Assembly (NCBI RefSeq): GCF_055900595.2
Contig: NZ_CM148325.1
Length of the DNA stretch: 64,000 bases
Direction: 5' to 3' (one strand)
In this document: positions 2,548 to 64,000 of the stretch, piece by piece
Layout: every line of letters starts with the position of its first letter
Numbering within the stretch: position 1 is the stretch's first letter
Notes under the pieces: model-generated
What the model was told of the DNA's origin: nothing
The model's input: the letters and a program-made list of their open reading frames with translations, nothing else
The model's database searches: none
Translations under genes and position numbers: made by a program

Positions 2548-4035
2548 TTAAATCACCTCTTCGATAACCCACACGCTGACGCTGCCGCCGTTGCAAAAGA
2601 AGGTCGCTTCGCCGTTTTCGTCGGTTACTACGCTCTCTTGCCGGTTCCCCAGAAAATCACGCCAGGTTTTATTGCCGTAATTCTCTCCCAGATGAATGGT
2701 TTTTTCGCCATCATCCCCGTTCGACATGACCACCACGCAGCCGGGATATTCGTCGGTGCCACTGCGGCTAAAGGCAATGCAGTTCGGATGGTCGAAAAAT
2801 AACGTCTGTACACCGTGGGCGAAACGCTGACGGGCGAGAATTAACTCATCAAGCTGTTCGATTATTGGCATATCTATTGGATAGGTTTGCCCGTCACCAC
2901 CGACATCTTCGTAATGCGCACCGTAGAGGTCCGGATAGAACACCGAAGGAACGCCATTTTCCCGCAACAAAATTAGAGCATACGCCAGCGGTTTAAACCA
3001 CGGTTCGACCGGCGCTTCGAGGGCTTGCAACGGTTGGGTGTCGTGATTGGCAACGAGCGTCACGGCGTGGAAAGGATCGGCTTCCACTAATGTACCCGTG
3101 AAAATCTGCGTCATGTCGTAGTCGCGCCCCATGCGCGATGCTTCATGGAATTTCATCTGCAGCGGCGCATCAAACAGCATGGTTTTGCCTTCCACCTGAT
3201 CAATATACGTTTGCAGCTTATCAACTTCATGCGACCAGTATTCCGCCACAATAAACAGCGGCTTTGGCGCAACTTCTTGTACGTGTTCGATCCACTCTTT
3301 ATAAAACCATGCCGGTATATGTTTGACCGCATCAAGACGAAAACCGTCGCATTGCGTTTGTTCCATCACCCAGCGCGCCCAGTATTTAATCTCTTCCGTC
3401 ACGGCATGATTGCGGAAATCGATATTCTCGCCCATCAGATAATCGAAATTACCTAATTCATCATCAACCTGATCGTTCCAGCCTTCGCCGGTGTAGTCGT
3501 TAACAATTTTAAATATGCCATCTTCATCAGGGTTTTCGATATGGTCGATACCGCTAAAACATTTGAAATCCCAGATAAACTGCGAGTATTGCCCGGCACG
3601 AGCGGGGAAGGTGTAACGCGTCCAGCCTTCACACTCAATGATTTCTTCGTCAATTTGCGTACGGTCATCAGCATTTACACGCTGCACGCGAATAGCTTCT
3701 TTTTCATCCGCGCCCATTTTGTGGTTGACTACCACGTCCAACAGCACCGCAATGTCATTACGTTTCAGGGCGTCAATGGCGGCCAGCAGTTGTGCTTTAT
3801 CGCCATATTTAGTAGGGATGCTGCCTTTCTGATCAAACTCACCTAAATCAAATAAATCATAGGAGTCGTAGCCGACCGAATACCCGCCCGATGCGCCTTT
3901 ATAGGCGGGCGGCAACCAGACCATATTGATACCAATATCATTAAAACCGTCGGCGCGCTCGGCCAGTTCAGGCCAGAGCTTACCGCCTTCCGGGTAATAC
4001 CAGTGAAAACATTGTAACAGCGTGGGATTACGCAT
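2548..4035 (-). CDS. amyA: Cytoplasmic alpha-amylase AmyA
   Basis: Track ORF 495 aa; matches K-12 AmyA length and sequence as recalled. Confidence 0.95.
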
Positions 4036-44279: not shown

Positions 44280-46350
44280 TCTGGCCGCGATGCTGCGCCT
44301 GCCCGCAAACCTGAAATCGACACAATGGCAGATCCTTGCCGGACCGATTTTGATCCTGTTGATCTTGTCGATGATGGTGCTGCCACTGCCCGCATTCATA
44401 CTCGACCTGTTGTTTACCTTCAATATTGCCTTGTCGATCATGGTGTTGCTGGTGGCGATGTTTACCCAGCGCACGCTTGAGTTTGCTGCGTTTCCGACCA
44501 TTCTGTTGTTTACCACGCTGTTGCGTCTGGCACTTAACGTGGCTTCAACCCGTATCATTTTAATGGAAGGGCATACCGGCGCGGCGGCGGCAGGGAAGGT
44601 GGTCGAAGCGTTCGGTCACTTCCTCGTTGGTGGCAATTTCGCTATCGGTATCGTGGTGTTTGTCATTCTCGTGATCATCAACTTTATGGTCATTACCAAA
44701 GGTGCCGGGCGTATCGCAGAAGTGGGTGCGCGCTTTGTTCTCGATGGTATGCCGGGTAAGCAGATGGCGATTGACGCCGACCTTAACGCCGGATTGATTG
44801 GTGAAGATGAGGCGAAAAAACGCCGCTCCGAAGTGACTCAGGAAGCCGATTTTTACGGCTCAATGGACGGGGCAAGTAAGTTTGTTCGCGGCGATGCCAT
44901 CGCCGGGATCCTCATCATGGTCATTAACGTTGTCGGCGGGTTGCTGGTCGGCGTGCTGCAACATGGCATGAGCATGGGACACGCGGCGGAAAGTTATACG
45001 CTATTGACCATTGGCGACGGTCTGGTGGCACAAATTCCGGCGCTGGTGATTTCTACCGCCGCGGGGGTCATCGTTACGCGTGTCAGCACCGATCAGGATG
45101 TTGGCGAGCAGATGGTGAATCAGCTTTTCAGTAACCCAAGCGTTATGTTGTTAAGCGCCGCCGTGCTCGGTTTACTCGGCCTGGTGCCTGGAATGCCGAA
45201 CCTGGTATTTTTGCTGTTCACTGCCGGATTGCTCGGGCTGGCCTGGTGGATACGCGGACGCGAACAAAAAGCGCCTGCCGAACCCAAACCGGTAAAAATG
45301 GCAGAGAATAATACCGTTGTCGAAGCGACGTGGAACGATGTACAACTGGAAGATTCTCTGGGAATGGAAGTGGGTTATCGACTGATCCCGATGGTCGATT
45401 TCCAGCAGGATGGTGAGTTGTTGGGCCGTATACGCAGTATCCGCAAGAAATTTGCCCAGGAGATGGGATTTCTGCCGCCAGTGGTGCACATTCGCGACAA
45501 TATGGATCTGCAACCTGCCCGCTATCGCATTTTGATGAAAGGCGTGGAGATTGGCAGTGGTGATGCTTATCCGGGGCGCTGGCTGGCGATTAACCCTGGA
45601 ACCGCTGCCGGGACGTTACCTGGTGAGGCGACCGTCGATCCGGCATTTGGCCTGAATGCTATCTGGATTGAAAGTGCGCTAAAAGAACAGGCGCAGATTC
45701 AGGGGTACACAGTGGTTGAGGCCAGCACGGTGGTAGCAACGCATCTTAACCACCTCATTAGCCAGCATGCCGCAGAGCTGTTTGGTCGTCAGGAGGCGCA
45801 ACAGCTGTTGGATCGCGTCGCCCAGGAGATGCCAAAGCTGACGGAAGATCTCGTTCCTGGCGTCGTCACGCTCACCACACTGCATAAAGTGCTGCAAAAT
45901 CTCCTCGATGAAAAAGTACCGATTCGCGATATGCGCACCATTCTCGAAACGCTGGCGGAACATGCGCCCATCCAAAGCGATCCACATGAATTAACCGCCG
46001 TCGTGCGCGTGGCGTTGGGACGGGCGATTACCCAGCAGTGGTTTCCTGGCAAAGATGAAGTCCATGTTATTGGCCTCGATACACCGCTGGAACGTTTGTT
46101 ACTACAGGCGCTGCAGGGCGGGGGAGGACTGGAGCCAGGGCTGGCGGATCGTTTACTGGCGCAAACTCAGGAAGCGCTATCCCGTCAGGAGATGCTGGGT
46201 GCGCCGCCAGTATTGTTGGTGAACCACGCGCTGCGACCATTATTGTCTCGCTTCCTGCGCCGCAGCTTGCCGCAGTTAGTGGTCCTGTCGAATCTGGAAC
46301 TGTCTGATAACCGACATATCCGCATGACGGCGATAATTGGCGGCAAATAA
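44272..46350 (+). CDS. flhA: Flagellar type III export gate protein FlhA
   Basis: Track ORF 44197..46350 trimmed to ATG 44272 (MSNLAAMLRLPANLK...); overlaps flhB stop by 8 nt; matches K-12 FlhA (692 aa). Confidence 0.95.
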   Translation: MSNLAAMLRLPANLKSTQWQILAGPILILLILSMMVLPLPAFILDLLFTFNIALSIMVLLVAMFTQRTLEFAAFPTILLFTTLLRLALNVASTRIILMEGHTGAAAAGKVVEAFGHFLVGGNFAIGIVVFVILVIINFMVITKGAGRIAEVGARFVLDGMPGKQMAIDADLNAGLIGEDEAKKRRSEVTQEADFYGSMDGASKFVRGDAIAGILIMVINVVGGLLVGVLQHGMSMGHAAESYTLLTIGDGLVAQIPALVISTAAGVIVTRVSTDQDVGEQMVNQLFSNPSVMLLSAAVLGLLGLVPGMPNLVFLLFTAGLLGLAWWIRGREQKAPAEPKPVKMAENNTVVEATWNDVQLEDSLGMEVGYRLIPMVDFQQDGELLGRIRSIRKKFAQEMGFLPPVVHIRDNMDLQPARYRILMKGVEIGSGDAYPGRWLAINPGTAAGTLPGEATVDPAFGLNAIWIESALKEQAQIQGYTVVEASTVVATHLNHLISQHAAELFGRQEAQQLLDRVAQEMPKLTEDLVPGVVTLTTLHKVLQNLLDEKVPIRDMRTILETLAEHAPIQSDPHELTAVVRVALGRAITQQWFPGKDEVHVIGLDTPLERLLLQALQGGGGLEPGLADRLLAQTQEALSRQEMLGAPPVLLVNHALRPLLSRFLRRSLPQLVVLSNLELSDNRHIRMTAIIGGK

Positions 46351-46742
46351 TGAGAACCTTATTAGCAATATTATTGTTTCCGCTGCTGGTGCAAGCCGCC
46401 GGGGAGGGGATGTGGCAGGCAAGTAGTGTAGGAATTACGCTAAATCATCGCGGTGAGTCGATGTCGTCTGCGCCTCTTTCTACGCGACAACCTGCTTCAG
46501 GATTGATGACGCTGGTAGCGTGGCGTTATCAGCTTATCGGCCCGACACCTTCAGGACTGCGGGTTCGCTTGTGTTCGCAATCTCGTTGTGTCGAATTAGA
46601 GGGGCAGAGCGGAACCACCGTGGCCTTTTCCGGTATAGCGGCAGCAGAACCGTTGCGCTTTATCTGGGAAGTGCCTGGCGGTGGGCGGTTAATTCCGCCG
46701 CTGAAAGTACAACGTAATGAAGTGATTGTGAATTATCGCTGA
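46350..46742 (+). CDS. flhE: Flagellar protein FlhE
   Basis: Track ORF 130 aa with signal peptide; ATG overlaps flhA stop by 1 nt. Confidence 0.9.
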   Translation: MRTLLAILLFPLLVQAAGEGMWQASSVGITLNHRGESMSSAPLSTRQPASGLMTLVAWRYQLIGPTPSGLRVRLCSQSRCVELEGQSGTTVAFSGIAAAEPLRFIWEVPGGGRLIPPLKVQRNEVIVNYR

Positions 46743-46801
46743 AGGACAAAAAAATTACGCGCTCGCGAGTATGTTTAATAACTCAGTGAAAAAGGCTCGA
46801 T

Positions 46802-46843
46802 GTTTTGTTGCAATTATTTATCAGGAATAGCTTGCAACAAAAC
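46802..46843. terminator. Long hairpin between convergent flhE and yecT
   Basis: Perfect 12-bp inverted repeat GTTTTGTTGCAA / TTGCAACAAAAC around an 18-nt loop. Confidence 0.55.
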
Positions 46844-46861
46844 ATGCCAAAAATATGTGAA

Positions 46862-47371
46862 TTATCCTCTTGTCAAAGGGCTTGGATAAAAATCTTCAGA
46901 GTTACGGTATAGCTGCAACTGGCGAGTTCGCGTATTGGTCTGTATGATCATACATGAGAGCCATTCTGATTCAGAATAAGGGTCACTTAAATCCTGAACG
47001 TCCTCATTTGAAAGGATTAATTCACATTCTTTGTCCCTAAAATCCAGCCAGGCTCGCTGTGATTTTTTAAGCAAGTTAAGTTGTTCGGTATCAGGTTTTT
47101 TTACACCTGTGCGTGGCACTTGTTCTATATAACGATAAGCTTCACCATAGGCTTTATTTAATTGCGCATCGACGAGATTGTATTCTTGTCGCAGGCATGA
47201 TTTGATCACGTTAATGTCACTATCATCATCTGAATTTTTTTGCCAACAATCTTTGATGGCTGAAATGTCATGGTCGTTTACTATAAGCGTATCTTCTGCG
47301 TAAACCTGGCAAGAGATAATGCCTAATGTTAATACAAGAAATTTAAACACTGCGGTATTCCTTAAATTCAA
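46862..47371 (-). CDS. yecT: Secreted DUF1311/LprI-like protein YecT
   Basis: Track ORF 169 aa; N-terminal signal peptide; position between flhE and argS as in K-12; gene name from synteny. Confidence 0.75.
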   Translation of the reverse strand: MNLRNTAVFKFLVLTLGIISCQVYAEDTLIVNDHDISAIKDCWQKNSDDDSDINVIKSCLRQEYNLVDAQLNKAYGEAYRYIEQVPRTGVKKPDTEQLNLLKKSQRAWLDFRDKECELILSNEDVQDLSDPYSESEWLSCMIIQTNTRTRQLQLYRNSEDFYPSPLTRG

Positions 47372-47472
47372 CCGTTATCGTTTCCCTGGGGCCGGATATT
47401 ACGCTTCTGACTTCTTACCCAACAGTGAGAAAACGATGGCATGTCCATTTTCAGAATACATTTAGATGGCAA

Positions 47473-47506
47473 TAAAAAAGCCTGATCAGGTAACCCTGAT
47501 CAGGCT
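47473..47506 (-). terminator. Rho-independent terminator of argS
   Basis: AGCCTGATCAGG-TAAC-CCTGATCAGGCT hairpin; plus-strand A-run 47474-47479 gives the U-tract on the minus strand. Confidence 0.85.
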
Positions 47507-47526
47507 TCACTCTCACGAAAAATCGA

Positions 47527-49260
47527 TTACATACGCTCTACAGTCTCAATACCCAGCGTATCCAGACCCAGCTTCAGCGTCTTCGCCGTCAGTTGTGCCA
47601 GTTTCAGACGGCTGTTACGCACTTCTTCGTTTTCTGCGCTGAGGATCGGGCAGTGCTCGTAGAAGCCAGAGAACAGACCGGCCAGATCGTACAGGTAAGC
47701 ACACATCACATGCGGCGTACCTTCACGGGCAACCACGGTGAGGGTTTCTTCAAACTGCAGCAGGCGAGCTGCCAGTTGCGCTTCACGATCTTCACGGATG
47801 ATTACCGGAGCTGCAGCCAGTTGCTCTTCGTCAATTTCTGCTTTACGGAACACGGACAATACACGCGTGTATGCATACTGCATGTATGGCGCGGTATTAC
47901 CCTCAAACGCCAGCATGTTGTCCCAGTCGAAGATGTAGTCCGTGGTGCGGTTTTTGGAGAGATCCGCATATTTCACCGCACCAATACCAACCGCGTTAGC
48001 CAGTTTTTCCAGCTCGTCGGCTGGCATATCCGGGTTCTTTTCTGCCACCAGACGGCGTGCACGTTCCAGGGCTTCATCCAGCAGATCGGCCAGTTTCACT
48101 GTACCACCCGCGCGGGTTTTGAACGGTTTGCCGTCTTTACCCAGCATCATGCCGAACATGTGGTGTTCCAGCGGTACGGATTCCGGTACATAGCCTGCTT
48201 TACGGACGATCGCCCATGCCTGCATCAGGTGTTGATGCTGACGGGAGTCGATGTAATACAGCACGCGATCGGCATGCAGTGTTTCATAACGATATTTCGC
48301 ACAGGCGATATCAGTGGTGGTGTAGAGATAGCCGCCATCTTTCTTCTGAATGATCACGCCCATCGGTTCGCCTTCCTTGTTTTTAAACTCATCAAGGAAT
48401 ACAACGGTCGCCCCTTCGCTTTCTACTGCCAGACCTTTGGCTTTGAGATCCGCCACAATTCCTGGCAGCATTGGGTTGTAGAGGCTTTCGCCCATCACGT
48501 CATCACGGGTCAGCGTCACGTTGAGACGATCGTAAGTGATCTGGTTCTGCGTCATGGTGATGTCGACCAGTTTGCGCCACATCTCGCGGAAATATTCGTC
48601 ACCGCTTTGCAGTTTTACCACGTAGTTACGTGCACGCTCGGCAAACTCTTCATCTTCGTCGTAATGCTTTTTCGCATCGCGGTAGAAACCTTCAAGGTCA
48701 GCCAGCTCCATTTCACCGGCGTTTTCCTGCTGCTGCTTTTCCAGCCATGCAATCAGCATACCGAACTGAGTGCCCCAGTCGCCGACGTGGTTTGCGCGAA
48801 TCACTTTGTGACCGAGGAACTCCAGAGTACGCACTGCTGCGTCACCAATAATGGTAGAGCGCAGGTGACCGACGTGCATCTCTTTCGCCACGTTTGGCGC
48901 AGAGTAGTCAACCACAATGGTCTGTTTTTCTGGCGTAGCAACACCGAGACGATCGGACGCCAGCGCCTGCTGAACATGTTCAGCCAGGAATGCCGGATCA
49001 AGGAAAATGTTGATAAAGCCTGGACCGGCGATCTCAACTTTGCTGGCGATACCGTTAAGATCCAGATGAGTCAGCACCTGCTCTGCTAATTGTCGCGGTG
49101 CCATACCCAGTTTTTTAGCAACTGCCATCATGCCGTTAGCCTGATAGTCGCCGAACTGAACTTTTGCTGACTGACGAACCTGCGGTTCGCAATCCGCAGG
49201 CGCGCCTGCCGCAATCATGGCCTGACGGACTTTTTCTGAGAGAAGAGCCTGAATATTCAC
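47527..49260 (-). CDS. argS: Arginine--tRNA ligase ArgS
   Basis: Track ORF 577 aa; class I HVGH motif (MHVGHLRST); matches K-12 ArgS. Confidence 0.96.
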
Positions 49261-63952: not shown

Positions 63953-64000
63953 ACATACGTAAATGGCAAAAACCATCACCAATGGTTTTTGCCATGATAT

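Follow-up and report, generated by a model that had tools for sequence, protein, structure and literature searches.

Rho-independent terminators of Escherichia coli place a stable hairpin soon after the stop codon, close its base with G-C pairs and follow it with a run of U; they act on one strand, their stems are under purifying selection, and their loops usually span 3–8 nt. Bidirectional terminators, which the SEnd-seq data of Ju et al. 2019 reportedly describe between convergent genes, consist of a single hairpin in a short spacer between such genes, with an A-tract upstream and a U-tract downstream, so that either strand shows the hairpin followed by a U-tract. Transcripts ended by Rho can carry protective 3′ stem-loops, which lie as hairpins without a U-tract upstream of the Rho-dependent region (Dar and Sorek 2018, as cited by Adams et al.), and REP/BIME elements are extragenic palindromes of 3′ untranslated regions, also found between convergent genes, which are GC-rich, measure ~35 nt, and number in the hundreds. 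The palindrome analyzed here lies between flhE and yecT in a 64-kb window (the whole stretch of 64,000 nt under analysis) and resembles each of these elements in part. It has the stable hairpin soon after a stop codon and the G-C-closed base of Rho-independent terminators, and probably also their U run, one-strand action, and selected stem, but differs from intrinsic terminators such as that of argS in its AU-rich stem, its 18-nt loop, a 3-nt bulge before the clamp, and a run of five U. It is a single hairpin between convergent genes like the bidirectional terminators, but is flanked by A5 on both sides on the plus strand. Like the protective stem-loops it lies, on the flhE strand, upstream of a Rho-dependent region, whereas no 3′ end is mapped at it in the Term-seq tables of Adams et al. 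2021, RNA continues beyond it, and natural variants weaken the flhE-strand fold. With the REP elements it shares its extragenic, palindromic nature and its place in a 3′ untranslated region, but it is AT-rich and present once per genome. Our preferred reading, to which we assign a probability of roughly 0.55, is that the palindrome serves as a weak, atypical, one-way intrinsic terminator or as a protective 3′ stem-loop of yecT. It would thus belong to a known kind of element, and we found no description of it in the searchable literature. The basis of this reading is the structure, the strand asymmetry, the conservation pattern, the co-occurrence with yecT, and published read densities, from which we infer termination at the hairpin itself.

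The first-pass annotation had recorded a perfect 12-bp inverted repeat with an 18-nt AT-rich loop at this place. The two 12-nt arms (GTTTTGTTGCAA, 46802–46813, and TTGCAACAAAAC, 46832–46843) are confirmed in the sequence, as is the loop (46814–46831; 67% AT), but the perfect arms extend by two more bases on each side and are in fact 14 nt long (ATGTTTTGTTGCAA, 46800–46813, and TTGCAACAAAACAT, 46832–46845). According to the annotation of matching RefSeq genomes, the palindrome is located in the 119-nt spacer between flhE (46350–46742, plus strand), the last gene of flhBAE as identified from its open reading frame and the annotation in matching genomes, and the convergent yecT (46862–47350, minus strand), annotated as a gene for an LprI/DUF1311 family protein. 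In 100 first-order Markov simulations of the 64-kb window, perfect inverted repeats with arms of 14 nt or more and loops of up to 40 nt were expected 0.02 times per 64 kb, as against two observed in the window, and the palindrome is therefore not a product of chance. Folding of the 119-nt intergenic RNA also beats that of shuffled sequences on both strands (z = −3.5 on plus and −2.2 on minus). The arms, which had been described as unusually long, turned out to be ordinary for the region: perfect arms measure 13 nt in the argS terminator, ~630 bp from the palindrome, and 14 nt in a hairpin at 63963. What is unusual in the palindrome is that its loop spans 18 nt and that it is poor in GC (28% for the hairpin core and 38% for the element, with four G-C among the 14 pairs), not the length of the arms. 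Besides the palindrome, the window contains a single inverted repeat with perfect 14-bp arms, the hairpin at 63963–63995 (ATGGCAAAAACCAT, a 5-nt loop, and ATGGTTTTTGCCAT), which lies at the very end and is not bordered by a U-tract. The whole flhE–yecT spacer is moreover bracketed by a perfect 11-bp direct repeat TGTGAATTATC (46727–46737 and 46856–46866), one copy of which extends over the final codons of flhE and the other over the yecT stop codon; the repeat is kept in E. whittamii, and its significance is marginal.

The two strands of the palindrome are not equivalent. On the minus strand, which is sense for yecT, the hairpin starts 13 nt past the yecT stop codon, and the RNA reads GGC-AUGUUUUGUUGCAA-18-nt loop-UUGCAACAAAACAU-CGA-GCC-UUUUUCAC, the right arm forming the 5′ arm and the left arm the 3′ arm. 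The stem is prolonged by an outer GC helix (GGC at 46846–46848 and GCC at 46794–46796, both on minus) across a 3-nt bulge (46797–46799; CGA on minus, with the variants CCA, GAA, and GGA), and UUUUU follows at once. In the minimum-free-energy fold, GGC pairs with GCC across the bulge, so that a G-C clamp abuts the five U of the U-tract (UUUUUCAC, 46786–46793; A5 on plus), and an inner 4-bp helix forms within the loop of the yecT-sense RNA. The plus strand reads AAAAA-GGC-TCG-palindrome-GCC-AAAAA, with A5 on both flanks and no U-tract; the minus strand consequently has U5 on both sides of the hairpin. The earlier statement that neither side has a clean U-tract thus holds for the plus strand but not for the minus strand, on which UUUUUCAC directly follows the GCC clamp. 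The free energies of the window allele are −19.7 kcal/mol for the yecT-sense and −22.5 kcal/mol for the flhE-sense hairpin.

As a relative scale of terminator quality, we used the d'Aubenton-Carafa discriminant, which gave d = −12.5 for the yecT-sense hairpin, −75 for the flhE-sense hairpin, and +28.9 for the argS terminator (47478–47507, minus strand), a canonical intrinsic terminator with a 13-bp GC-rich stem, a 4-nt loop, and a U-tract that served as the internal comparison. A simple terminator scan with loops of up to 8 nt misses the palindrome. The geometry and the positive score that are typical of intrinsic terminators, and not strictly defining for them, were not found (38% GC, an 18-nt loop, and d = −12.5). 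The palindrome therefore has the form of a terminator on one strand only, and is weak and atypical there. For yecT, a stable sense-strand hairpin is present just after the stop codon, as expected of an intrinsic terminator; the U-tract consists of only five U, is brought next to the stem only by a helix of 3 bp formed across the 3-nt bulge, and has not been retained in E. whittamii. Some alleles, moreover, do not form the outer GGC/GCC helix in the minimum-free-energy fold.

These strand differences bear directly on whether the palindrome could be a true bidirectional intrinsic terminator for both convergent genes. That a single strong hairpin lies between the two genes, and that either strand of the window allele folds stably, would agree with such a function. 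However, the plus strand lacks the layout of an A-tract upstream and a U-tract downstream, reading AAAAA at either end with d = −75; in K-12, the flhE-sense hairpin carries a C·A mismatch, the density of flhE-strand reads is not reduced past the hairpin in published data of low read counts, and a Rho-dependent region lies downstream. A bidirectional terminator is, consequently, very improbable. Of the proposal that the palindrome terminates both genes, the terminator-type role is what is best supported, for yecT only, while the flhE side of the proposal is contradicted by the lack of a U-tract, the mismatch, the undiminished RNA-seq reads, and the Rho-dependent region. Within the same spacer, a small GC palindrome CGCGCTCGCG (46758–46767) is followed by U7 on the minus strand and preceded by A7 on the plus strand. 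It scores too low for a terminator (d = −54) and may represent a weak second stop signal of yecT. In Escherichia sp. E1V33 it is replaced by CGTGAGCACG (CGTG..CACG), a compensatory double change from C-G to U-A.

The comparative analysis drew on 13 different spacer alleles, found in chosen E. coli genomes, in E. whittamii and Escherichia sp. E1V33, and in metagenomes scanned with an anchor outside the hairpin. Among these 13 alleles, variable sites are found at 1 of 34 paired as against 15 of 39 unpaired positions (Fisher p = 1.8e-4), and the difference persists when the loop and bulge alone are taken as unpaired (1/34 versus 5/21; p = 0.026). The 5′ arm of the yecT-sense hairpin and the GGC/GCC clamp show no variation in any allele. 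In the 3′ arm a single site differs: the K-12-type allele, the commonest of all, has G instead of A in the yecT-sense RNA (C instead of T at 46804). The remaining variable sites are located in the loop (three), the bulge (two), and the flanks (many). We then counted pairs on explicit folds of both strands, on which three variable positions are paired, one in the arm and two in the inner 4-bp helix of the loop. All three change U-A to U·G on the yecT-sense fold (99.2% of cells still paired), whereas on the flhE-sense fold each of them abolishes the pair, the K-12 arm change being the C·A mismatch mentioned above. The K-12 change accordingly costs nothing on the yecT-sense strand (−19.8 versus −19.7 kcal/mol), as against 3.7 kcal/mol on the flhE-sense strand (−18.8 versus −22.5 kcal/mol). 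Across the alleles, the stability of the yecT-sense fold stays between −19.3 and −20.2 kcal/mol, save for one allele with a 16-bp stem, while that of the flhE-sense fold ranges from −18.6 to −24.8 kcal/mol. The strand signal comprises three one-sided substitutions and zero double compensatory changes (sign test p = 0.125), so that the comparative evidence for the strand appears consistent with a yecT-sense element but thin. The palindrome provides a worked example of how wobble-compatible substitutions assign a palindrome to one strand. Every E. coli allele and E1V33 keep the U-tract, but it has decayed to GUUUAACC in E. whittamii, in which the arms are retained. The arms without a U-tract in E. 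whittamii count against the preferred reading, and conserved arms around a variable spacer would fit a palindrome acting at the DNA level as well.

The same alleles bear on the alternative that the palindrome is a functionless relic at the edge of an acquired islet, with its symmetry maintained by intrastrand templated repair (quasipalindrome correction) and not by selection. Two substitutions in the loop give strains A29 and 361 a perfect palindrome of 16 instead of 14 bp, which is the pattern that would be expected of quasipalindrome template-switch correction, and a relic would also agree with the poor terminator score, with the silencing of yecT in laboratory conditions, and with a position only 57 nt inside the islet boundary. 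On the other hand, the arms are invariant across three species, apart from the K-12 change in the 3′ arm, while nearby non-coding positions vary at 15 of 39 sites; the derived K-12 change reduces the symmetry of the DNA and yet forms the commonest allele, which argues against efficient correction; and the conserved GGC/GCC clamp and the U-tract are outside the palindrome and left unexplained by templated repair. We therefore regard a relic as unlikely, though as the least unlikely of the alternatives.

Published transcript data come from K-12, which has the G·U allele. The Term-seq tables of Adams et al. 2021 (Supplementary file 1) contain no 3′ end at K-12 1,9624xx–1,9625xx on either strand, and the TERMITe supplements have no entry at the hairpin. 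The missing 3′ ends in the tables of Adams et al. 2021 are probably explained by the silencing of yecT in the laboratory; yecT in K-12 is repressed by H-NS/StpA and activated by BglJ-RcsB (PMC3950696). Supplementary file 2 of Adams et al. 2021 lists a Rho-dependent region at K-12 1,962,401 on the minus strand, which is the flhE strand and antisense to yecT (Rho score, 4.16; p = 1.8e-5), with low counts and 800-nt windows and hence a coarse resolution. Converted from the K-12 coordinate, the region lies approximately at 46921 on the plus strand of the window, ~75 nt past the hairpin. In Table S1c of Huang et al. 2020, the sense/antisense reads per million (RPM) in wild-type total RNA are 3.36/16.63 for yecT and 7.14/1.09 for flhE, numbers which are supportive and not decisive, as the table assigns strands inconsistently for several genes including yecT. 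With the same qualification, the yecT-strand density falls across the intergenic region from ~6.9 to ~2.8 RPM/kb, a 60% drop in the wild type (91% in rnc-14 and 64% in rnc-38), while the flhE-strand density goes from ~18 RPM/kb in flhE to ~34 RPM/kb over yecT antisense, showing no loss (Huang et al. 2020). Huang et al. 2020 also reported a cluster of p19-captured double-stranded RNA inside flhE, classed as a 3′ overlap and strong in one dataset only, which shows that some read-through occurs on the yecT strand. In the K-12 RNA-seq data, the antisense signal over yecT exceeds the sense signal, and its density exceeds that of flhE itself, suggesting an antisense promoter near the 3′ end of yecT, or a stable antisense RNA extending toward yecV.

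Based on the preferred reading, the following course of events can be proposed. RNA polymerase exiting yecT would transcribe GGC, the arms with the loop between them, CGA, GCC, and UUUUUCAC in the order given above, upon which the 14-bp AU-rich helix and the three G-C clamp pairs (about −20 kcal/mol) would form directly upstream of the five U. A large share of the yecT transcripts would be released at the hairpin, which would limit antisense transcription into the flagellar flhBAE operon, and the hairpin would probably also block 3′ exonucleases. On the plus strand, the hairpin has no U-tract, and flhBAE transcription would accordingly be expected to pass it and to be stopped later by Rho, antisense to yecT. 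K-12-like flhBAE is thereby indicated to be without an intrinsic terminator of its own and to depend on Rho inside the neighboring gene. An extension of this scheme, in which the palindrome would act as a strand-selective gate at the islet edge that blocks outflow from yecT and lets flhBAE antisense RNA pass over yecT to yecV, coupling flagella to yecT silencing and yecV expression, is distinctly doubtful. The practical outcome, a probable 3′ end signal for yecT, has little significance beyond annotation.

The Rho-dependent region raises a further alternative, in which the palindrome plays a post-transcriptional role on the flhE strand: Rho would stop flhBAE downstream, exonucleases would trim the RNA back, and the hairpin would guard the mature 3′ end, possibly in addition to its role for yecT. 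The position of that region downstream on the flhE strand and the high stability of the flhE-sense hairpin of the window allele (−22.5 kcal/mol; z = −3.5) are in favor of this role, as is the remark of Adams et al. 2021 that Rho-terminated transcripts are typically trimmed by 3′-to-5′ exonucleases. However, no flhE 3′ end is found in the Term-seq tables of Adams et al. 2021, the flhE-strand reads beyond the hairpin are at least as dense as those inside flhE, each natural substitution at a paired position weakens the flhE-sense fold, and strains without yecT manage without the hairpin. We regard protection of the flhBAE 3′ end as improbable.

A role at the DNA level, as a binding site for a dimeric protein or another DNA-acting factor, takes up the protein-binding palindrome that the first-pass annotation had suggested along with a terminator. 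Its attraction lies in the long, perfect, and conserved arms with a variable spacer, in the use of the loop as an IS1 insertion site, and in the resemblance of TGGCAT-N6-TTGCA on the yecT-sense strand to a sigma-54 promoter. The palindrome is nevertheless placed downstream of both genes, with no promoter there to regulate; it is single-copy in the genome, with no further copies in the window, and one arm is asymmetric in most strains, in which the symmetry is broken in a way tolerable for RNA only. To our knowledge, 14-bp arms that are 32 bp apart from center to center are unlike known operators. The sole motif resemblance also fails, since the GG..GC spacing of the candidate sigma-54 promoter (TGGCATGTTTTGTTGCA on the yecT-sense strand) is 11 instead of exactly 10 (TGGCAC-N5-TTGCA), the ChIP-seq study of Bonocora et al. 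2015 has no site here, and the RpoN gSELEX study lists neither yecT nor flhE. The nearest site of Bonocora et al. 2015 is the intragenic IS24 (TCGGTATGCTGATTGCA) inside argS (argS lying within 47527–49260), which points toward yecT from 1,397 bp upstream. No sigma-70 promoter was found inside the palindrome. A DNA-level site is thus the least probable of all the functions considered, and the suggestion of a protein-binding palindrome is not borne out. Among known RNA families, Rfam gave matches at chance level only (E > 1, with scores far under the gathering thresholds). A dispersed or REP-like repeat was likewise rejected, as the palindrome occurs once per genome and, among 134 loci, only at the yecT locus, the window holding only the two arms; the idea that the same palindrome might recur elsewhere in the genome gave a median of one place per genome in 3,613 genomes.

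The preferred assignment of the hairpin to yecT is in line with the distribution of the two. Of 5,426 complete E. coli genomes, ~3,561 carry the hairpin, never without yecT, and ~1,726 of 5,339 genomes match the flhE end but are without the hairpin. Both yecT-less genomes inspected (H105 and PCP07014) proceed from flhE through 52 nt to argS, with no yecT, yecV, or hairpin, from which it follows that 46743–47526 is an insertion/deletion islet, which roughly one in three complete E. coli genomes lacks. This AT-rich, H-NS-silenced islet, which replaces the 52-nt flhE–argS spacer, comprises the flhE-proximal spacer, the hairpin (57 nt inside the boundary), yecT, yecV, and the argS terminator, and has a length of 785 bp and a GC content of 0.36–0.40 as compared with 0.51–0.60 in its flanks. 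In the preferred reading, the yecT islet, hairpin included, was acquired horizontally and is gained or lost as a unit. That the hairpin is gained or lost with yecT is what would be expected if it belongs to the yecT transcription unit. The 52-nt spacer of yecT-less genomes carries a different, GC-rich hairpin. A homology of the left arm with this hairpin (AAAAAGGCTCGATGTCTTGTTGCAAT versus AAAAAAGCCGATGTCTGCAAT) was rejected because the spacer aligns best elsewhere, namely with the argS-terminator end of the islet (best local alignment score, 23; shuffle p = 0.04). The arms are not terminal repeats of a mobile element either, no partner copy of an arm being present at the other edge of the islet.

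The surroundings may be of somewhat wider interest than the hairpin itself, with a polymorphic yecT/yecV islet, recurrent IS1 events, and an flhBAE operon without an apparent intrinsic terminator. The gene yecV, annotated as encoding a small protein of 14 residues (47441–47485, plus strand), lies on the strand opposite to argS and has its stop codon within the stem of the argS terminator. An IS1 element is found in the hairpin loop (at the equivalent of 46814–46825) together with a deletion of yecT, at a junction common to ~55 genomes, and in other strains IS1 is inserted inside yecT. Two laboratory-evolution papers likewise describe IS1-mediated deletions of the flagellar region with an end point in yecT or close to flhE. 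Outside Escherichia, the closest relatives of YecT (~60% identity, LprI/DUF1311) are encoded in type VI secretion clusters (at 3001–3486 in each of the loci L131 and L132), in which no comparable structure lies downstream of these homologs, so that the hairpin does not travel with them. The genes neighboring these relatives encode VgrG, a pesticin-like or CHAP-domain protein, PAAR, and IcmF/TssM. This type VI secretion context suggests a role for the uncharacterized yecT, and by analogy with its relatives E. coli yecT may be an orphan immunity-type gene.
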